Shown: positions 9,007-39,092 of the stretch, piece by piece
Layout: every line of letters begins with the position of its first letter
Position numbering within the stretch: the first letter of the stretch is position 1
Notes under the pieces: model-generated
Databases searched by the model: none
What the model was told of the DNA's origin: nothing
Seen by the model: the letters and a program-made list of their open reading frames with translations, nothing else
Source: Candidatus Pacebacteria bacterium CG10_big_fil_rev_8_21_14_0_10_44_54
GTDB lineage: Bacteria; Patescibacteriota; Microgenomatia; UBA1400; PJMF01
DNA length: 63,239 bases
Reading direction: 5' to 3'
Assembly (NCBI GenBank): GCA_002772695.1
Contig: PFDI01000004.1
Coordinates: forward strand, 326-63,564
Position numbers and translations under genes: made by a program

Positions 9007-9957
9007 CTACTGTAGCAGTATTTTGTAGATTTTGTTCTTCTTTTCTTCGGTGAGGTGAATACAGACGAGTCCTGTCCTAGGTTGTCCATAATAGATTGCT
9101 GTTCCCAGTGGTGCGAGCAAGATAAGTACTGCGGCTGCCAAGTCCTCTTCTCCTTCGACAAATATATAGCGATGTTTTTTTTTGAGCGCAGCGGTGAGTG
9201 TCTTGGTCAGATGAATCGAAATACTACCAGCTGGATTAACCGCGAGCAGCTCTATTTGGTGATTTGGCACAACAGGTGGGTAGTAGATTTTTCTTTGGAT
9301 TCTATAATCAAAAACCGCCAGATCATGTTTCCAGCTGTTTGCCAAAAACTTCTGTAGTGATGAATCGCCAACGACTATCTGCAACCCTTTGCTACTCGTT
9401 GGTTGTTCTAGTACTTCTCCTTGAATCTCTGCAAAGAACTCTCGCTGTTTTTTATCAAGCACGATTGTTTTGGCCAGAGCCTGGTTATAGAGCCTGCCAT
9501 TGCGACTGGCAACTCCCTGACGAATACTCGTACTGCTTAGAGGCGTGCCATCACAAAGCATCACTAGCGGGACCTGCACTATTGGCAGTACAGGAAGATT
9601 TTGTTTAGTTCTTGTTTGGTTGATGATATCTGCTCCCGGCATTGTATCCGAGGAAACACAGAGCACATCTATTTTTGTGTCGCTCAATATTGTTGGTCCA
9701 AATATGTTTTTGAGCGGAAAAATTTTACATGGATAGTGTTTTTGCTTGCAGTAGTTTTCGACGTCTTTGACACGAGCGGCAAATGGTTCGAGGGTAGCTG
9801 CTGCTTGTTTTTCTAGTGATCTGGCAAACACATCTGTTGTGACTCCGATGGCAAGCTTTTCTGCGATGCTACCTGCTTCATCAATCAGCGCCTGATGCCC
9901 AAGATGAAAATGATCAAAGGTGCCACCGAGCCCCGCCAGCTTGTACTTTTTTGTCAT
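9007..9957 (-). CDS. coaD: Archaeal-type phosphopantetheine adenylyltransferase fused to a DUF359 (GTP-dependent dephospho-CoA kinase-like) domain
   Basis: GGTFDHFHLGH (HxGH), LSSTSIR, then VVGD, DYRIQR, NPAGSI, VEGEEDLA, YGQP. Confidence 0.8.
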   Translation of the reverse strand: MTKKYKLAGLGGTFDHFHLGHQALIDEAGSIAEKLAIGVTTDVFARSLEKQAAATLEPFAARVKDVENYCKQKHYPCKIFPLKNIFGPTILSDTKIDVLCVSSDTMPGADIINQTRTKQNLPVLPIVQVPLVMLCDGTPLSSTSIRQGVASRNGRLYNQALAKTIVLDKKQREFFAEIQGEVLEQPTSSKGLQIVVGDSSLQKFLANSWKHDLAVFDYRIQRKIYYPPVVPNHQIELLAVNPAGSISIHLTKTLTAALKKKHRYIFVEGEEDLAAAVLILLAPLGTAIYYGQPRTGLVCIHLTEEKKNKIYKILLQ

Positions 9958-10714
9958 GCTGTATCATACCTTCTTTTTCCAACTGCAAAAATGCGACTGC
10001 AAAATGTTTTTTGTCTCCAGTAATTTTTGCCAGCAATTCATCTTTGGTAAGCAGTGACTCTTGTGTCAGCAAGCGAATAATTTCTCCCCGAACTTGTCTG
10101 GGCGAGCCGACGAATTTTGATTGCTTGGTATAGCCTGTGCTCCTGCGGCCGTGATTACCGGTGAGTTTTTTGAGTACCGAGCCGTAATCCATCAGCGCCC
10201 AGTACCACTCGCGCGGACTTTTTCTGTCAAGGGTCGCATTTATCAATTTGAGTAGTTGCCTGTCAGATACTTTCGACTTGTTTGGAAAAAAGTGATACAA
10301 AAAAACAGTTCGAATGTTGGTCTCGATCATGGTGACAGGTAGGTTATAGCTAAAGGCACGAATTGCAGTTGCAGTATAGGGCCCGATGCCGGGGAGTTTT
10401 TCGAGTTCAGCAAGTGAGTTAGGAAATGGCTTGCCCGCTAGTTTTTGTGCACACTGGTGTAAGTATTTTGCTCGGCGGTTATAACCAAGGCCTTGCCAAA
10501 GCATCATTACTTGATATTGTTTCGCTTTTGCCAAGACAGAAATACTAGGAAATTGCTCTAGAAATGCCAGATACTTTGGGATCACTCGCTCGACTTGGGT
10601 TTGTTGCAGCATGAGCTCTGAGACGAGAATGCGGTAGGGATCGGCTGTTTTGCGCCATGGCAGATCGTGGCGACCGTAGTTTCGATACCATTTTTTAATA
10701 TAACGCTCAAACAT
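9914..10714 (-). CDS. mutY: A/G-specific adenine glycosylase lacking the [4Fe-4S] cysteines
   Basis: RHDLPWR, VSELMLQQTQV, WQGLGYNRRA, LPGIGPYTA HhH. Confidence 0.92.
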   Translation of the reverse strand: MFERYIKKWYRNYGRHDLPWRKTADPYRILVSELMLQQTQVERVIPKYLAFLEQFPSISVLAKAKQYQVMMLWQGLGYNRRAKYLHQCAQKLAGKPFPNSLAELEKLPGIGPYTATAIRAFSYNLPVTMIETNIRTVFLYHFFPNKSKVSDRQLLKLINATLDRKSPREWYWALMDYGSVLKKLTGNHGRRSTGYTKQSKFVGSPRQVRGEIIRLLTQESLLTKDELLAKITGDKKHFAVAFLQLEKEGMIQHDKKVQAGGARWHL

Positions 10715-19450: not shown

Positions 19451-20443
19451 CTAGCATAGCAGTTTTTCTAGATGCTTCACCTCGTTTTTTGTCCCTACAA
19501 AAAATGGTATGCGCTGGTGCAACTCTCTTGGTTGGATCTCTAGCACGTCTAATCTACCATTGCTTGAATAGCCACCAGCTTGCTGTGTTAGGAATGCAAA
19601 GGGAATACCTTCATACAACAGCCGCAGCTTGCCGTTTGGATTTTTGTTATCCGCAGGATAGAGAAAAATACCACCCTTGAGTAAGTTGCGATGAAAGTCT
19701 GCAACAAGTGAGCCAATATATCTTGCTGAGAGGGGTTTGCCAGAATGGTTTTTACTAGTTTTATATTCACTCACTATGTGTTTAATGGCATCGTTCCACT
19801 TTGGCTCATAACTCTCATTGACACTATATATTGTTGTTATAGCAGGATAGTGAATGTTCTCATGTGAAAGTAAAAACTCACCAATCGATGGATCGAGCGT
19901 AAAGCCGTGCACCCCCTTGCCAGAAGAAAATACCAACATCGTGCTTGAGCCGTACACAATATAGCCAGCGCAAATGGCGTTTTTGCCAGCTTGTAGATAA
20001 TCTGATTTTTGCAGTTTGCCCGATTTTGATTTTCGTTTGAAAATGACAAAGTTGGTGCCGACGCTGACATTGACATCAATGTTGGACGAGCCATCAAGTG
20101 GATCTATGTGCACGATGTACTCGGCAGTATGATGAATTTTATCTGTAAAAACTACGATATTGTCTACCTCTTCGCTTCCTACCGCGGCAACGTGTGGTGA
20201 TTGCCGGAGTAGCTCGGTGAATGTTGTGTTAGCAAGTTCATCGAGCTTTTGTACCTCTTCTTTCTGAATGTTAATTTTGTCAGTTTTTCCGAGAATATCG
20301 ACCAACCCGGCCCTGTTTATTTCTCGTGAGACGATTTTTGTCGCAAGCACGATTTGAGAAATAATATTTCCTAGCTCAGTGCTTTTTTTGCTATGCGTGT
20401 GTTGCTCAAATAAAAAATTGGTGAGGTTGGTGATTTTTTTCAT
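19451..20443 (-). CDS. fbp: Class 1 fructose-1,6-bisphosphatase
   Basis: EVQKLD, DPLDGSSNIDVN, RYIGSLVADFHR, GKLRLLYE. Confidence 0.95.
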   Translation of the reverse strand: MKKITNLTNFLFEQHTHSKKSTELGNIISQIVLATKIVSREINRAGLVDILGKTDKINIQKEEVQKLDELANTTFTELLRQSPHVAAVGSEEVDNIVVFTDKIHHTAEYIVHIDPLDGSSNIDVNVSVGTNFVIFKRKSKSGKLQKSDYLQAGKNAICAGYIVYGSSTMLVFSSGKGVHGFTLDPSIGEFLLSHENIHYPAITTIYSVNESYEPKWNDAIKHIVSEYKTSKNHSGKPLSARYIGSLVADFHRNLLKGGIFLYPADNKNPNGKLRLLYEGIPFAFLTQQAGGYSSNGRLDVLEIQPRELHQRIPFFVGTKNEVKHLEKLLC

Positions 20444-23716: not shown

Positions 23717-24244
23717 ATGTCACATTCTTTTGATCCAAAACTTTTGAAAGCAGCAGTATATGGGGCCAACGATGGTATCGTCACCACCTTCGCGGTTGTT
23801 GCAGGAGTAGCTGGCGCTCAATTGTCTTCCAATATTGTGATTATTCTCGGTATAGCCAACATGATTGCTGACGGCATGGCAATGGGGCTAGGTGACTTTC
23901 TCGGTGAACAGTCAGAACAACACATGCGACAAAAACAAACAGGGCGCTCTACCACTTCAGGTTTGTGGAAATCAGGTTTAGTGACGTTTGTTTCATTTGT
24001 GCTTGCTGGCTCTATGCCACTGGCTCCTTATTTTTTGGCAGCAATTGGTGTGAAAGTGCCGAGCGAGTCTGTGTTTGATTTTTCTATACTATCGACTATG
24101 GGCGCGCTTTTTTTTGTCGGTTCGATTAGGACGAAGTTTTCTGATATCAATTGGTTTGTAGGAGGACTGCAGATGCTGGGTATTGGCGCCATTGCTGCAT
24201 CAGCAGCTTATTTCTTTGGGGCTTGGTTGGAGCCGATGTTATAA
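23717..24244 (+). CDS. VIT1/CCC1 family Fe/Mn transporter; start reassigned to ATG 23717
   Basis: YGANDGIVTTFAVVAGV, GIANMIADGMAMGLGDFL, GSMPLAP. Confidence 0.9.
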   Translation: MSHSFDPKLLKAAVYGANDGIVTTFAVVAGVAGAQLSSNIVIILGIANMIADGMAMGLGDFLGEQSEQHMRQKQTGRSTTSGLWKSGLVTFVSFVLAGSMPLAPYFLAAIGVKVPSESVFDFSILSTMGALFFVGSIRTKFSDINWFVGGLQMLGIGAIAASAAYFFGAWLEPML

Positions 24245-24256
24245 ATTCAGATTTAT

Positions 24257-24342
24257 TGGGTAGAGTACGGGAGGCTGTTAGAAATTTACTAAATCAAAAA
24301 AATGATATTCAAATTAGTTCGAAATTATTTTTTTCCACTTAG
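24257..24342 (+). other. Junction J1: att arm encoding an orphan LSR C-terminal tail
   Basis: TGGGT AGA GTA CGG GAG GCT GTT AGA = GRVREAVRNLL...; lies 13 bp after the VIT1 stop. Confidence 0.7.
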
Positions 24343-24600
24343 GATTTGAGCTAGAACAAATGATGCCAGCATAACTCCAACCAGTGATAGTAATAATCCG
24401 CCATGAATCATCCATCCCACTTCACCAAGAGAATCAAACTGAGACTTAGAAAAAAAGATGATCATTTCAAAGGCCACTGCACAGAATCCAAAGAGCCTTA
24501 GATAGAGTGCCTGTTTATTGTTTTTCATATGTACTCATTATTGCTTTGATTCATAATAGAATAAAGCATCAAAATATGTTTATATATCAATATAATGGGT
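24258..24600. mobile_element. Mini-cassette 1 (339 bp core to core), one gene, no recombinase
   Basis: Bounded by GGGT cores of J1 and J2; its right end IKICLYINIMG resembles the LSR end FKLYLSENPTMG. Confidence 0.55.
24325..24528 (-). CDS. Small two-TM membrane protein (cargo of cassette 1)
   Basis: 67 aa with two hydrophobic segments; convergent with the J1 tail. Confidence 0.6.
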   Translation of the reverse strand: MKNNKQALYLRLFGFCAVAFEMIIFFSKSQFDSLGEVGWMIHGGLLLSLVGVMLASFVLAQILSGKK

Positions 24601-24651
24601 AGAGTTCGAGACGCCATTCGCACCATGTTCCAATACTACCAAAAATTATAG
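24596..24651 (+). other. Junction J2: att arm encoding an orphan LSR C-terminal tail
   Basis: ATG GGT AGA GTT CGA GAC GCC ATT CGC = MGRVRDAIRTMFQYYQKL*. Confidence 0.7.
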
Positions 24652-25215
24652 TGTCACTCCAACTCCAGGTTTAAGTTCCCCTCCATTAAGTACCTTGCAC
24701 AAAATACCTCGCCTCGAATAAACACCGTTTTCAGTTTTTACTGCAAGAGCTTTAATCAATCCCAAACCGTTATGATCTTCCAATTTCTTACATGGATAAG
24801 CATGGTCTACTACTTCCAGCATAATTCCATTATCAAAAGTTACAACGGAACCCACTTCTACATCTCCTAAATCACTCAAGCCTTCAACTACCATCTGCTC
24901 GTTAAAGTCACCGTGTTGCATATCTAATCCAAGATTCTTATTCACCCAGATTCTAATTTCTTCAGCCACAATACTGATAGGTCGATCATTAGGTTTCAAT
25001 GTGCCTGGTTTTGTAAAACTCTCACGAAGCTCTCCAGAATGAGCATCACCTTCAATTCCTAACATTCCAATGACTATAAAATCCTGTGGGTAAGTGGGGA
25101 ATCCATGTTCTGGACTCATACATACTGCAACAACTTTTCCTGACTTTGACTCAACTGACATAGACTCCTTCTACTTATACTCAATTCCGGTTCGAGTAAA
25201 GTCTTGTAATGGGGT
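24597..25215. mobile_element. Mini-cassette 2 (615 bp core to core), one gene, no recombinase
   Basis: Bounded by J2 and J3; right end AAAGTCTTGTAATGG matches LSR-proximal AAAATCCTACAATGG at 11/15, all four mismatches transitions. Confidence 0.55.
24646..25161 (-). CDS. MOSC-domain protein (YiiM-like)
   Basis: GKVVAVCMS, GIEGDAH, DRPISI, GDFNEQMVVEG, YPCKKL, RRGILCKVLNGG. Confidence 0.8.
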   Translation of the reverse strand: MSVESKSGKVVAVCMSPEHGFPTYPQDFIVIGMLGIEGDAHSGELRESFTKPGTLKPNDRPISIVAEEIRIWVNKNLGLDMQHGDFNEQMVVEGLSDLGDVEVGSVVTFDNGIMLEVVDHAYPCKKLEDHNGLGLIKALAVKTENGVYSRRGILCKVLNGGELKPGVGVTL

Positions 25216-25305
25216 AGAGTACGGGAGCTTGTTAGGAAATTATACCAGTGCTACTTACTTGGTGAAAGTCAGTCAAATACTTCGAATGTTGCTTGCCTAG
25301 GTTGA
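25210..25305 (+). other. Junction J3 (attL of the 13.8-kb element) encoding the probable native LSR C-terminus
   Basis: GGT AGA GTA CGG GAG CTT GTT AGG = GRVRELVRKLYQCY...LG*; joins the LSR in frame via the GGGT core. Confidence 0.75.
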
Positions 25306-26150: not shown

Positions 26151-26675
26151 CTATGCACCTCCCTCGTTATTTTTTTCAGCATCATCACTTTTAGTTGAAG
26201 CAAACTGTGTAATCGTTTGTTCGCTTTGATAAAGTTTGCCAGCAATCCACCCCAACGCCTGAATCAAAAGAAACAGCACTTCTGCAAAAAAGTTCCGCAG
26301 GTAATACATACCCGTTTTCTCTCTGTAGTGAACTTCCGCTTCTTTATTTACTGGCATTACTGGTTTATCCACTTCTGTCCTTCTGGGTAGATTGATGCCG
26401 ATTCTGTGAGTCCCAGGAATGGGGGCTACAAGCTCAATTTTGCCAGTTGGTGAGGCGAGAAATAAGGCGATGTCTCTTGAAAGATTTTCAAAGTTTGAGA
26501 TTGGTTCACCCATGGCAATTTCTAGCTGAAATTCCAAGTGTTTTTCATGGAAATTGATCTCCATGACTCGAACTTTGATCCCGTGTGCAGCAAAGTTATG
26601 TTCTAACGAAGAAGCAAGCATCGGCACATTTTCAACTGGTTTGATAATTTTAGATTTTGAGGTTGATTTTTGCAT
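26151..26675 (-). CDS. Stand-alone FtsK alpha-domain protein with a C-terminal TM helix; start at ATG 26675
   Basis: LEHNFAAHGIKVRV..NLSRDIALFLA..VAPIPGTHRIGINLP matches the FtsK alpha pattern; no Walker A motif. Confidence 0.7.
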   Translation of the reverse strand: MQKSTSKSKIIKPVENVPMLASSLEHNFAAHGIKVRVMEINFHEKHLEFQLEIAMGEPISNFENLSRDIALFLASPTGKIELVAPIPGTHRIGINLPRRTEVDKPVMPVNKEAEVHYREKTGMYYLRNFFAEVLFLLIQALGWIAGKLYQSEQTITQFASTKSDDAEKNNEGGA

Positions 26676-26676
26676 A

Positions 26677-27429
26677 TTAGGTTTCATTGAGTATCTCCAA
26701 TACTTTATTAGCAAGCTCTCTTTTCTCAATCAAGAACTTGGCATACTTTGATTGATCGGGGCGATTCAGTCCCACAGTAAAAGTTCTCAGTCCTGGCTGT
26801 TTATTTTCATTAGCGGTCAGTTTCAAAAACTCTGGTGCAGGAATACAAAAAACGTGTTCATGGATGTCGCCCTGAGTGAGATCAAAGTAAACGAAAACCA
26901 TGAGCATCCGCCTTTTATTGATGATGTTTTTTTCTTTGACAGTTGATACAAAGCCGTTGTTTCTATCGCCAAAGGTTGATTTAACCTGGATATAGGCAAC
27001 TTCTAACACACCTCTTTTTTTTACGATAATATCAATACCCTCATCATCACTGATCGGTCTGTAGCAAGAAAGCCCAGTATCACCATAGAGAGTGATCAGC
27101 TCAGCAACTCTTGCCTCAGCAATGTCGCCCTTTTGCTTGGTGTTGAGGTCACTCGTGACACGATGTTTTACGATCTGAGCCTTGGCACTTACTGATTTTT
27201 GAGTACCCTCAGCCCGCAGACCATAAAATCCTGGCTCACTACGATAAAAAATAGAGCTATCTCCATTCTTTTGAATGTCCATCGAGATTCGGGCGTTCAT
27301 GGTAGCCCAAGGTGTTGATCCCTCTGACTGCAAGCCAAGTTTCAAGGCTCGTTCAGTTATTTCTTTGTAGTGAATTGGTTTTTTTGCTTCACTGATGACT
27401 CTTTGGGCGAGAGATAAAAATGTTTCCAT
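26677..27429 (-). CDS. HARE-HTH domain fused to a PD-(D/E)XK endonuclease
   Basis: AQRVISEAKKPIHYKEI..TPWATMNARIS..FYGLR; QKGDIAE, DDEGIDIIV, YIQVKS. Confidence 0.8.
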   Translation of the reverse strand: METFLSLAQRVISEAKKPIHYKEITERALKLGLQSEGSTPWATMNARISMDIQKNGDSSIFYRSEPGFYGLRAEGTQKSVSAKAQIVKHRVTSDLNTKQKGDIAEARVAELITLYGDTGLSCYRPISDDEGIDIIVKKRGVLEVAYIQVKSTFGDRNNGFVSTVKEKNIINKRRMLMVFVYFDLTQGDIHEHVFCIPAPEFLKLTANENKQPGLRTFTVGLNRPDQSKYAKFLIEKRELANKVLEILNET

Positions 27430-36186: not shown

Positions 36187-37302
36187 ATGTCAAAAATCAA
36201 AGACAAAAACGAACGTATCAAACGCAAATATCTCAACTGGCTACAAGAGGCTGAGGGCTTCTCAGAGAAATCAATCACAGCAGTAGAAACAGCCCTCTGG
36301 AAGTATGAGGAGTTCAGTAGAGATTCAGACTACAGCACGTTCAATCACAAAATCGCTGAGCAGTTCAAGAAGCACCTGGTGAACAACAAAAACAGAATAA
36401 GCAACAAGACACTCTCGCTAAGATCGCAATATCACGTTCTCAGGCACGTTCGCAATTTCTTGACTTGGCTATCTGGTCAAGTTGGGTATAAGTCAAGAAT
36501 CTCGACTTACGATGTCCAGTACTTGCAGTTGAGCAAGAAAGATCGGCGGGTGGCGACCTCTGCCTCACTTCCCAAGTACCCAACCCTTGAGCAGATCAAA
36601 CAGCTTTGTAGCTTTTCAGTTCAAACTGAAATTGATCAGCGGGATCGGGCGTTGATAGCCTTTACTGCTCTAACAGGTATGCGGGATCAGGCGATTGTTA
36701 CCTTACCACTGGGTTGTTTTGACCAAGAGAAAATGCTGGTGCAACAGCTTCCTAGCAAAGGTGTTCAGACTAAGTTCAGCAAGGATATTTACACCACCCT
36801 TTTTCATGTTGATGAAACGCTCGTGAGCTACTTCTTGAAGTGGTATGACTATCTGAAAACTGAAAAGCACTTTGGGCTTGATGATCCAATGTTTCCAAGT
36901 ACGGCGGTTGGTTTTGTTGGTGAGAATCATCATGCTTTTACCTCTATGGGTGTCAGCAAAGAGTTTTGGGCAGATACAAACCCGATGCGTAAGATTTTTC
37001 AAGCTCGAAGCAAACAAGCGAACGTACCTTACTACACCCCCCATAAGTTTAGGCACTTTATCATCAATGAAGCCCAGAAGCACATCACTAGCATTGAACA
37101 ACTCAAGGCACTAAGCCAGAATCTCGGTCATGAAAATATCAGCACGACCTTTCACGGCTATGGTGCAATTGATACTTACAGAGTCAATGAGTTAGTTAGC
37201 TCGATTGATTTTACAGGACTCCCTCAGAACCGAGCTGAAGAAGCTCAGCTTGAGAGAATTGCTGATCTTGTGGCTAAAAAATTGGGTAGAACTGAGCTAT
37301 AA
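36187..37302 (+). CDS. Tyrosine recombinase/integrase
   Basis: LTGMR (R), TKFSK (K), HKFRH (HxxR), LGH, catalytic Y in FHGYG. Confidence 0.9.
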   Translation: MSKIKDKNERIKRKYLNWLQEAEGFSEKSITAVETALWKYEEFSRDSDYSTFNHKIAEQFKKHLVNNKNRISNKTLSLRSQYHVLRHVRNFLTWLSGQVGYKSRISTYDVQYLQLSKKDRRVATSASLPKYPTLEQIKQLCSFSVQTEIDQRDRALIAFTALTGMRDQAIVTLPLGCFDQEKMLVQQLPSKGVQTKFSKDIYTTLFHVDETLVSYFLKWYDYLKTEKHFGLDDPMFPSTAVGFVGENHHAFTSMGVSKEFWADTNPMRKIFQARSKQANVPYYTPHKFRHFIINEAQKHITSIEQLKALSQNLGHENISTTFHGYGAIDTYRVNELVSSIDFTGLPQNRAEEAQLERIADLVAKKLGRTEL

Positions 37303-37397: not shown

Positions 37398-39080
37398 ATG
37401 AGAATAAGAAAAACACTTACTACCACTAGGTCACGCAAATCTGGACTAAAGAAACAGAATCGGTACATTTTATACGCCCGTAAATCTACTACCTCGGAAG
37501 ATCGTCAAGTCGCCTCTATTGATTCCCAAATTGAAGTTATGACAGAAGTGGCTCGTGAGCATGACCTCGAAATCGTTGAGGTACTCAGCGAAGCAGGTTC
37601 AGGCTTCAAGATAGGTAGGACAGCGTTCAATGCCATGATCGAGAAGATCGAAAATGGTGAAGCAGACGGTATCATTGTCTGGAAGCTCTCTCGTCTTTCC
37701 CGCAACCCTGACGATGCAGGTAAGATCATGGGCTTACTACAGCGGGGTGAAATCAAGCATATTCGAACAGTTGACCGCAACTGGTATCCAGAAGACAACG
37801 TGATGATGATGTACGTTGAGTTTGGTATGACTAACCAATTCAGCCGTGATCTGAGTTCGGATACTCGCCGAGGTTTAGTCAAGAAAGCTGAGCGTGGTTG
37901 GTTGCCAAACGCTATTCTCCCGCTTGGGTATATGCACAGTCCATACAAGAAGTTAGGCGATGAGGAAATTATCATTGATGAAAACCGCTATTTCTTGATC
38001 CAAGAGGGTTTGAAGTTGGTAGCCTCTGGACAGCAAACACCAGTTGAAGCTCATGGCTATTTAGTTAGTCAAGGTGTTGTGGGAAAAAGAAGCGAGGCGT
38101 TACCCAAGAGTACTTGGTACAAAATGCTGGTTGAACCACTGTATGCGGGTACTTTTGAGTATCCAATCGGAAGCGGTCAATTTTACGAATCCAAAGCACC
38201 CAGAGCTATCGAGCCAACTGAGTATGATGCTATTCAAGTAGTTCTAGGAAGAAAAGATAAGCCACGACCAAAGCGACACTTTTTGCCGTACACAGGTTTG
38301 ATGAAGTGTGGCGAGTGTGGTTGCTCTATCACTGCGGAGAAGAAACAAAAAGTGCAAAAGAATGGCAATGTTCATCACTATGTTTATTACCGTTGTACAA
38401 AGAAAAAGGGTGACTGTGGTCAACCTTGTACGAATGTTGATGTACTGGAAAAGCAGTACAAGTCCATTCTGAAACGCATCAAAATCCCACCTGCCTTTCA
38501 CGAATGGGCAATTGATGAAATCAAACTTGACCAAGAAAAAGTGGTCAGGGATCGTGACTTGAGCCTTGAGCGAGCCAGAAATAACTATGATGACTGCCTA
38601 GCTGAAATTGATAACTTGGTGAAGAAATACTTAGACGGGAAAGTGCCAGAAGATTACTATGATCGCAACCTAGCCAAGCTCAACAAAAATAAGAAGATAC
38701 TAGCGAAAATCCTAGAGGGTATTGATAAAAGTGTTGATGAGAACTTGCAAGAGTTGGATCAAGATCTCGACTTTGCCGTGACAGCTAGAAGACGCTTCAA
38801 CAAAGGTGACGATCATAAACGCCGAGAGATTATCTCGTACTTAGGATCGAACCTTACCCTGACTGATCACACACTAGGCATAGAGTTGAAAAAACCACTA
38901 AAACTGGTTGCAGAAATCGCCAAAGAGGTCAATGAAGCTGTGCAAAGGTTTGAACCACTGGAAAATGCGGATAATTCGGAACAATTCAAACTATATTTGT
39001 CTGAAAATCCTACAATGGGTGGTATACCGGATTCGAACCGGCGACCTCCGCTGCCACAGAGCGGCGCTCTAACCAACTGA
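37398..39080 (+). CDS. Large serine recombinase (resolvase + recombinase + Zn ribbon + coiled coil); last ~20 codons are antisense tRNA-His
   Basis: YARKST (catalytic Ser), EDRQ, SRLSRN, PLGY, CGECG..YYRC..C; ends MGGIPDSNRRPPLPQSGALTN*. Confidence 0.95.
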   Translation: MRIRKTLTTTRSRKSGLKKQNRYILYARKSTTSEDRQVASIDSQIEVMTEVAREHDLEIVEVLSEAGSGFKIGRTAFNAMIEKIENGEADGIIVWKLSRLSRNPDDAGKIMGLLQRGEIKHIRTVDRNWYPEDNVMMMYVEFGMTNQFSRDLSSDTRRGLVKKAERGWLPNAILPLGYMHSPYKKLGDEEIIIDENRYFLIQEGLKLVASGQQTPVEAHGYLVSQGVVGKRSEALPKSTWYKMLVEPLYAGTFEYPIGSGQFYESKAPRAIEPTEYDAIQVVLGRKDKPRPKRHFLPYTGLMKCGECGCSITAEKKQKVQKNGNVHHYVYYRCTKKKGDCGQPCTNVDVLEKQYKSILKRIKIPPAFHEWAIDEIKLDQEKVVRDRDLSLERARNNYDDCLAEIDNLVKKYLDGKVPEDYYDRNLAKLNKNKKILAKILEGIDKSVDENLQELDQDLDFAVTARRRFNKGDDHKRREIISYLGSNLTLTDHTLGIELKKPLKLVAEIAKEVNEAVQRFEPLENADNSEQFKLYLSENPTMGGIPDSNRRPPLPQSGALTN

Positions 39081-39092
39081 GCTAATACCACC
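39018..39092 (-). tRNA. tRNA-His(GUG) with G-1; integration target
   Basis: G-GTGGTAT/ATACCAC-C, CCGCT-CT-GTG-GC-AGCGG anticodon arm, TTCGAAT. Confidence 0.95.

Follow-up and report, generated by a model that had tools for sequence, protein, structure and literature searches.

Within a 63,239 nt stretch of DNA from Candidatus Pacebacteria bacterium CG10_big_fil_rev_8_21_14_0_10_44_54 (GCA_002772695.1, contig PFDI01000004.1, positions 326–63,564), here called the window, two small units of 339 and 615 bp and a resident element of 13.8 kb follow one another up to a tRNA-His gene, and each begins with a short junction that encodes the C-terminal tail of a large serine recombinase (LSR). We consider that they form a tandem-accretion array, built at tRNA-His by Patescibacteria LSR elements that carry the attachment site attP in the coding end of their own recombinase gene, and that the reduced units have kept arms which still serve as recombination boundaries; we put the probability of this reading at about two-thirds (0.68). 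The Patescibacteria, members of the candidate phyla radiation (CPR), have tiny genomes in which gene flow is poorly understood, and what appears to be new here, to judge by the sequences, is an LSR accretion array in the CPR, tiny single-gene modules flanked by att sites, and an attP that overlaps the C-terminal helix of the recombinase. In what follows the end of the LSR gene is called the p arm and the LSR tail the p' arm, and the chromosomal and tRNA arms are b and b' respectively.

The junctions that delimit the units, J1, J2 and J3, are closely similar. The 14 nt motif GGTAGAGTWCGRGA is found in the window at 24259, 24598 and 25213, each time with no mismatch; when up to two mismatches are allowed there is one further match in the 63 kb, which carries two, and shuffled sequences average 0.63 matches. 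A repeat search recovers a single 34 nt family of three copies, spaced by 339 and 615 nt. An earlier note on this DNA had described three GGGT junctions followed in frame by GRVR tails, and these exact copies bear it out, as does the presence of the same GGGT where the LSR gene meets tRNA-His at 39017. Read in the frame GGT AGA GT., the J1 copy encodes GRVREAVRNLLNQ..., beginning GRVREAVRNLL, the J2 copy encodes GRVRDAIRTMFQYYQKL followed by a stop codon, and the J3 copy encodes GRVRELVRKLYQCY..., such that all three specify a GRVR[ED]x[VI]R tail. The arginine codon is CGC in J2 and AGA or AGG in J1 and J3, a synonymous swap that points to constraint at the protein level. J3 reads TGGGGT, an arm of the Trp-Gly type, in frame with its tail. 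The resemblance to the end of the resident LSR gene that had been noted to the left of J2 and J3 is also upheld by an anchored extension score (P about 0.005 at J2 and 0.004–0.03 at J3); there is no such likeness to the left of J1 (P about 0.5), which fits a chromosomal arm formed by the end of the VIT1 gene. The possibility that the repeats are tRNA fragments was rejected, since the tRNA-His 3' end occurs only once in the window, even with three mismatches allowed. The cores of the three junctions are as follows, L044 being a contig with a different array that is considered below.

24258–24261, forward strand: J1 core GGGT, the b–p'(1) junction, probably attL of the oldest unit, with the putative crossover GT at 24260–24261
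24597–24600, forward strand: J2 core GGGT, the p(1*)–p'(2) junction; homology to L044 begins exactly here
25212–25215, forward strand: J3 core GGGT, the p(2*)–p'(3) junction, attL of the resident element; homology to L044 stops exactly here

At the other end of the resident element the LSR gene runs into the tRNA gene, and its final 20 codons are the antisense strand of tRNA-His (39021–39080), the protein reading ...ENPTMG up to the core and then GIPDSNRRPPLPQSGALTN to the stop codon. The native tail of this enzyme lies detached at J3, which is the left junction of a complete 13.8 kb element and not merely a cassette boundary. The earlier note had the units stacked at the tRNA; the tandem junctions are indeed there, but the array sits 13.8 kb from tRNA-His, on the opposite side of the resident element, to which J3 belongs. 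The resident element and its target comprise the following features.

25213–25305, forward strand: p'(3), the native C-terminal tail that the resident LSR has lost to this junction, GRVRELVRKLYQCYLLGESQSNTSNVACLG and a stop codon, a near-match to the tail of the relative P0007
25216–39016, forward strand: body of the resident element, 13.8 kb, with gene order as in L001, a related element described below
36187–37302, forward strand: tyrosine recombinase (Pfam Phage_integrase; phrog_216), just upstream of the LSR
37398–39080, forward strand: LSR, 560 amino acids (PF00239 Resolvase, E=1.5e-21; PF13408 Zn_ribbon_recom, E=1.1e-7)
39017–39020, forward strand: attR core GGGT, the p(3)–b' junction
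39017–39091, reverse strand: tRNA-His (GTG), intact (ARAGORN; Rfam tRNA, 67.9 bits), the integration target, with the putative crossover in the acceptor stem

In some strains the resident LSR seemed to be a pseudogene, but this was rejected, since the sequence is intact and 100 % identical and the gene is merely uncalled.

Homologues of this LSR are abundant, with 1879 found at E ≤ 1e-10, the named ones being from Patescibacteria; the family targets tRNA genes, and in every array examined the target is tRNA-His. Many of these relatives also contain PF07508. The C-termini of the best 120 of the 1879 were inspected. In at least 31 of the 120 a conserved ...NP.[MW]G leads straight into a terminal peptide encoded by the antisense strand of a tRNA 3' half, such as GRWDSNPRPPLPQSGALTN and ...DSNPRPPLPQSGALTN, and to judge by these ends the 31 are integrated at tRNA genes like the window copy. 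At least 14 of the 120 end instead in p'-type tails, G[RL][VL][RD][ED]x[VFI]R[TK], so that a GRVR[ED]-type motif is present at LSR C-termini as had been supposed. The four closest relatives with tails (P0003, P0007, P0011 and P0022) carry GRVRE/QxVRxLYxxY, the motif of J1–J3, with the end pattern ...MG followed at once by R[VL]R[EQ]xVR.L, and the interpretation of the repeats as recombinase coding tails that continue across an att core is thereby supported. The intact relative P0007, on contig L002, terminates in a tail nearly the same as p'(3), GRVRQLVRKLYQCY..., and the L002 DNA has an unbroken p–p' junction, ...CCCGTAATGGGT running directly into AGAGTACGGCAACTTGTTAGAAAATTATACCAGTGC..., that matches J3 over about 14 codons. 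The native tails of relatives and this unbroken p–p' DNA place the attP core inside the last codons of the LSR gene. In an AlphaFold model of P0007 the crossover falls at the start of the terminal helix (residues 491–505, pLDDT about 67–78), the rest of the tail being disordered; integration would thus, on this model, swap the terminal helix for a proline-rich peptide from the tRNA antisense strand. The antisense-tRNA tail is present whenever the element is integrated and is conserved across many relatives, because tRNA sequences are themselves conserved. Regular-expression and motif scans for more orphan tails in L001 and in three further arrays or elements (L036, L037 and L043) returned nothing beyond the known LSR ends.

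The only sequence common to the b–p', p–p' and p–b' junctions is (T)GGGT, and there is no long direct repeat. The dyad symmetry is strongest when centred on the final GT, with 12 of 22 positions in the L002 attP, including CCGTA...TACGG (P about 0.004 per position, 10 positions tried), and 9 of 22 in the reconstructed attP of the window; the L001 junction is near-palindromic about the same dinucleotide, CGCAATGG-GT-CCATTACC. From the dyad symmetry and the L001 junction we infer that crossover takes place at this GT, which lies within the acceptor stem. We note that in L001 (GCA_039934415.1, positions 9920–9960) an LSR element 89 % identical to that of the window is joined after ATGGGT to non-tRNA DNA beside an aminotransferase gene, and that its LSR yields a 633 amino acid read-through product; the near-palindrome suggests that the element inserted off target, at a site mimicking the p arm.

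The two small units, of which unit 1 spans J1–J2 (339 bp) and unit 2 spans J2–J3 (615 bp), have the same construction, each consisting of a tail, one convergent gene and 17–33 nt of an LSR 3' end. With the chromosomal gene to their left they are made up as follows.

23717–24244, forward strand: VIT1-family gene (Pfam VIT1, E=5.5e-37), the chromosomal left flank, whose last codons with the next 13 nt represent the probable b arm of the original attB
24259–24342, forward strand: p'(1), orphan LSR tail, GRVREAVRNLLNQKNDIQISSKLFFST and a stop codon, with the motif seen in tails of intact relatives
24325–24528, reverse strand: unit 1 cargo, an open reading frame (ORF) of 67 amino acids with, as judged by eye, the look of a two-helix membrane protein, overlapping the end of p'(1) at its 3' end
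24564–24596, forward strand: p(1*), LSR 3'-end remnant of about 33 nt, with a 3 nt gap and stop codons upstream (P about 0.005)
24598–24651, forward strand: p'(2), orphan LSR tail, translated in frame as GRVRDAIRTMFQYYQKL and a stop codon
24646–25161, reverse strand: unit 2 cargo, an intact MOSC protein of 171 amino acids (Pfam MOSC, E=6e-9; 55 homologues found)
25194–25211, forward strand: p(2*), LSR 3'-end remnant of about 17 nt and of the Trp-Gly type, GAGTAAAGTCTTGTAAT then the first G of a GGGG run

The 67 amino acid product has no Pfam, PHROG or PADLOC match. A tblastn search of the window with 115 LSR family members (E<1e-3) detected no recombinase fragment in either unit, and none elsewhere in the window besides the known LSR ends; the description of each unit as holding one convergent gene and no recombinase is therefore accurate, and remnants of both arms are kept. 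In both units the cargo gene and the tail overlap at their 3' ends, and the same arrangement is found behind intact LSRs in L036 and L037, which indicates that the units are native on their tail side. The observed structure would result if each unit had undergone a single internal deletion that began upstream of its first cargo gene and stopped just before the LSR stop codon. A scan of the array for promoters and terminators gave matches no commoner than in shuffled sequences. A promoter-like site (TTCACC, a 16 nt spacer and TG-n-TATAAT, 10 of 12 positions) at 25239–25266 on the reverse strand lies inside p'(3) and is directed into the MOSC gene, but such sites are not above shuffle expectation in this region, and the stretch is not common to L044.

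Within the species the block formed by the two small units is polymorphic. The array of the window recurs unchanged, with the units in the same order, in more than 10 contigs of the species that come from different samples. Samples in which the species occurs include ERZ27293400, ERZ27293412, ERZ27293414, ERZ27293362, ERZ17912254, SRR6053076, SRR6240784 and SRR6240789, and JGI 3300025850, 3300025142, 3300025288 and 3300004208. In two independent assemblies, L017 (ENA) and L035 (JGI), the VIT b arm is instead fused directly to p'(3) at the J3 core and the intervening 954 bp block is precisely absent; the flanking matches are 98–99.8 % identical to the window, and the breakpoint falls inside the common sequence GGGTAGAGTACGGGAG, J1 and J3 having 16 identical nt in common. 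A scan of genomes with the VIT protein for empty or alternative sites gave one 67 % relative (L003), which shows neither tRNA-His nor synteny, and one unrelated match. The 20 nt b-arm pattern has three matches in the metagenome collection, all of them chance and unrelated, and this collection evidently holds no contigs of the window species. A profile of the LSR run against viral contigs (IMG/VR) found only two distant, unrelated recombinases, and elements of this LSR family are thus not in IMG/VR. Several contigs of the window species break about 20 nt inside tRNA-His or in the MOSC gene (the left ends of L023, L026, L027 and L028 and the right ends of L014 and L015), which may reflect population heterogeneity or repeats common with other tRNAs.

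The MOSC unit is found a second time, core to core, in a different array. Contig L044 has another chromosomal gene, a b–p' junction with the tail GRLREF... and a 362 bp unit, here unit X, with a 75 amino acid ORF that has no similarity to the 67 amino acid ORF of unit 1; there follow a J2-type junction, the MOSC gene, a 17 nt p remnant of the identical type, and then about 15 nt resembling the tRNA-His acceptor end. Window positions 24597–25215 are 86 % identical to L044, from exactly the J2 core to exactly the J3 core, and on either side of the MOSC unit the flanks match at 12 of 40 positions, which is the level expected at random. Within the unit, identity of the MOSC gene by codon position is 90, 98 and 71.5 %, with 68 % at four-fold sites, a pattern which indicates that the gene is under purifying selection. 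The p remnant segment with its core (25195–25215) is identical at 19 of 21 positions and the first 27 nt from the J2 core (24597–24623) at 25 of 27; the att arms without their cores are identical at 36 of 40 positions, against 68 % at four-fold sites (binomial P about 0.001). Since the homology ends exactly at both cores beside unrelated neighbours, the MOSC unit was already reduced before the later events, and these would have been site-specific events at both of its cores that changed the neighbours in at least one lineage. Three independent mini-units (units 1 and 2 of the window and unit X of L044) have a tail, one gene and a p remnant of 17–33 nt. The reduced units thus behave as discrete modules that are lost, gained or given new neighbours at their att cores.

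The history that we favour would run as follows. An LSR integrates at the end of the tRNA-His acceptor stem, whereupon the last 30 or so codons of its gene (p', with the helix GRVRExVRxLYxxY) would be detached to the far junction and the integrated LSR would finish on 20 antisense-tRNA codons. J3 would be the far junction of the live element, and J1 and J2 those of two related elements that arrived earlier at the same tRNA, if the presumed order is right. Of each of these earlier elements only the tail, the first convergent cargo gene and 17–33 nt of p arm would remain, and their arms would have stayed usable, so that units could be lost, gained or given new neighbours as wholes; the likeliest routes are hitch-hiking with a neighbouring functional LSR element, or action by it. 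Unit 2 and the resident element could together act as a composite, bounded by p'(2) and the LSR end, that would give a normal attP on excision. This could explain the occurrence of the MOSC unit in two arrays, and L044 would then represent the state after the functional partner had left.

Several considerations weigh against this interpretation. The deletion between J1 and J3 could stem from ordinary short-homology recombination across the 16 nt. L044 is a single short contig, and the sharing of the MOSC unit could be due to vertical descent with independent integrations beside it. The p remnants are degenerate, with a 3 nt gap at J2 and stop codons in both, and may not bind the resident LSR, and promoter or terminator signals of the cargo gene could account for part of the conservation of the arms. 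Canonical LSRs recombine only attP with attB, not attP with attL or attR, which does not account for the chemistry of accretion; the tyrosine recombinase beside the LSR may also play a part. The junctions expected from movement can be written out, namely the empty attB (GATTTATTGGGTGGTATACCGG), the circles of the resident element (CCTACAATGGGTAGAGTACGGGAGCTTG), of the 954 bp block (TCTTGTAATGGGGTAGAGTACGGGAGGCTG), of unit 1 (339 bp, ATCAATATAATGGGTAGAGTACGGGAGGCTG) and of unit 2 (615 bp, TCTTGTAATGGGGTAGAGTTCGAGACGCC), composite circles in which the LSR end meets p'(1) or p'(2), and the single-unit deletion (GATTTATTGGGTAGAGTTCGAGAC). Neither a circle junction nor an empty attB nor a variant lacking a single unit was found.

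On another reading the small units would be inert deletion relics, with J1 and J2 as fossils, the 954 bp lost by RecA or by slippage over the 16 nt repeat, L044 explained by descent and the arms functionless, an alternative that the earlier note had raised and that we regard as rather unlikely. As an account of where the units came from it probably holds. L037 has two full LSR elements at tRNA-His and then a 3.3 kb recombinase-less unit that ends in a ragged 405 nt LSR fragment fused to the tRNA, and this fragment suggests that the units probably arose by decay of whole elements; homologues of the MOSC protein with 79–80 % identity lie inside larger, multi-gene cargo clusters, and in L045 and L046 (80 % identity) the gene stands in an ordinary operon with no J motifs. 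The stop codons and the indel in the p remnants are as expected of relics, and the 16 nt common to J1 and J3 suffice for a homology-driven deletion. The claim of inertness fares less well, however, since the L044 homology ends exactly at both cores beside unrelated neighbours, which implies site-specific use of the arms after reduction, since the arms are 36/40 identical when four-fold sites are at 68 %, and since three independent mini-units all keep the same three parts. Elsewhere, L036, from a 1.14 Mb CPR genome, has two tandem LSR elements at tRNA-His, of which the second LSR ends in a 23 nt pseudo-copy of the tRNA-His 3' end (19500–19760); the real tRNA-His comes after a further 24 nt, and a fragment of a tRNA 5' half lies beyond the gene. 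These tRNA pieces suggest that events at this one tRNA were repeated or imprecise.

It is possible, though we think it doubtful, that the array is a serine-recombinase cassette system in its own right, in which att-gene-att modules of 0.3–0.6 kb, with arms that are the halves of an LSR coding end, are excised, swapped and stacked at tRNA-His by LSRs acting in trans or from neighbouring elements, and in which the crossover toggles the terminal helix of the LSR between the native and the antisense-tRNA form as a built-in switch tied to the state of integration. A more strictly integron-like version of the proposal in the earlier note, in which the LSR would excise free single-gene circles of 339 and 615 bp and take them up in trans at a dedicated site as its routine way of acquiring genes, seems to us improbable. 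It does draw on real features, in that the units are att-gene-att without a recombinase, the module boundaries coincide with the cores and the arms are conserved. But a search for attC-like hairpins at the junctions gave only AT-rich low-complexity palindromes, none of them common to J1–J3; only two or three such units have been seen and their order is constant within the species; no circle junction is on record; and larger decayed units occur in the same kind of array (L037). A circle of 339 bp is, moreover, very small for serine-recombinase synapsis. The integron comparison also fails in its enzyme, as no IntI-type integrase acts at the junctions, a capture platform not having been looked for. 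Finally, the repeats are scarcely conceivable as chance matches, given a motif count far above shuffle expectation, or as partial tRNA-His duplications by the tyrosine integrase at 36187–37302, for which there is a tyrosine recombinase gene in the island and a tRNA as target, since the tRNA-His 3' end is unduplicated, which rules out duplication of the classical kind, only GGGT is common with the tRNA, and the repeats are read in the frame of LSR ends and agree with the tails that intact relatives carry.

The accretion reading has kin among known systems, and the remark in the earlier note that no description of an LSR/tRNA-anchored equivalent was known to it does not stand, given the ssrA islands of Dehalococcoides (PMC3146451), the pseudo-SCC elements of staphylococci and the cis-mobilizable elements (CIMEs) of streptococci. 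The Dehalococcoides islands have a CcrB-related LSR, lie at the 3' end of the tmRNA gene in tandem stacks, some without an integration module, and have been proposed to be cis-mobilizable (PMC3146451). They resemble the present case as LSR-built tandem arrays at the 3' end of a tRNA-like gene with members that lack the integration module, but differ in the ssrA target, the 20 bp direct repeat and the kilobase lengths, and an overlap of attP with the recombinase coding sequence is not described there. Composites of SCCmec (staphylococcal cassette chromosome mec) are formed by the serine recombinases CcrAB and CcrC as tandem cassettes at the 3' end of rlmH (orfX), and include pseudo-SCC elements without ccr (10.1101/336396; PMC6243372). 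Here too serine recombinases stack elements at one gene and recombinase-less members are bounded by att sites, although the target is rlmH and not tRNA-His, the hosts are Staphylococcus, the elements are many kb long and the recombinase gene does not span attP. In Streptococcus thermophilus the CIMEs related to ICESt1 and ICESt3 are described as products of tandem accretion in which older members lose integrase and transfer genes and keep att sites (Pavlovic et al. 2004, cited in 10.64898/2026.01.13.699239; PMC5812530, PMC5704250). The likeness is that related elements stack at one site and that recombinase-less members keep att and move or vanish with a functional neighbour; the CIMEs differ in having tyrosine recombinases and long identical core repeats, where the window has an LSR, a core of 2–4 bp, one-gene units of 339–615 bp and an att arm that is LSR C-terminal coding sequence.

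Two further comparisons concern the structure of the sites. The SSV-type 'suicidal' integrases of archaea carry attP inside the integrase ORF, and int(C) pieces pile up at tRNA genes (PMC7253208; PMC8371274). As in the window, attP lies within the ORF and integration at a tRNA splits off a C-terminal coding piece, but those enzymes are tyrosine recombinases that integration inactivates, whereas here about 30 terminal codons are swapped and the catalytic and DNA-binding domains are intact. Integrons are similar in their ordered, mostly single-gene and recombinase-less units bounded by recombination sites; they differ in the IntI-type enzyme and folded attC, neither of which is present at the junctions here (attI and Pc were not searched for), and the units of the window seem to derive from decayed whole elements. 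The tyrosine recombinase of the window is internal to the element, about 11 kb away from the array, and the enzyme adjacent to a junction is the serine recombinase. Full-text literature searches for a serine-recombinase/tRNA system in Patescibacteria or the CPR gave nothing relevant.

Placement of attP inside the coding end of the LSR implies that every integration rewrites the C-terminus of the enzyme, and no description of such C-terminus-rewriting integration for serine recombinases was found in the literature searched. The persistence of decayed elements as one-gene modules with conserved arms would offer a route by which single genes such as that for the MOSC protein are kept and passed between arrays. 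The defined attB, attP, attL and attR are also candidate material for recombinase tools in organisms that are genetically hard to work with.

The remainder of the resident element encodes a DNA methylase and a ResIII helicase/nuclease, a HARE-HTH/PD-(D/E)XK protein, a DUF5659 protein, an HTH protein of 139 amino acids, the tyrosine recombinase and the LSR. Every full element of the family examined has a tyrosine recombinase gene upstream of the LSR, either adjacent to it or no more than two genes away (window 36187–37302 with 37398–39080; L001, 7111–10158; L036, 7548–11656; L037, 8910–11704). Still further upstream, by a few genes, the window, L001, L036 and L043 have a gene for a DUF5659 protein; none is called in L037. 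Beside the methylase/ResIII pair are genes for an isolated FtsK_alpha-domain protein (26151–26729) and for the HARE-HTH/PD-(D/E)XK protein (26677–27429). Neither the ResIII protein nor the HARE-HTH protein has a PADLOC match; together, the FtsK_alpha, HARE-HTH/PD-(D/E)XK, methylase and ResIII proteins may form a restriction or defence module.

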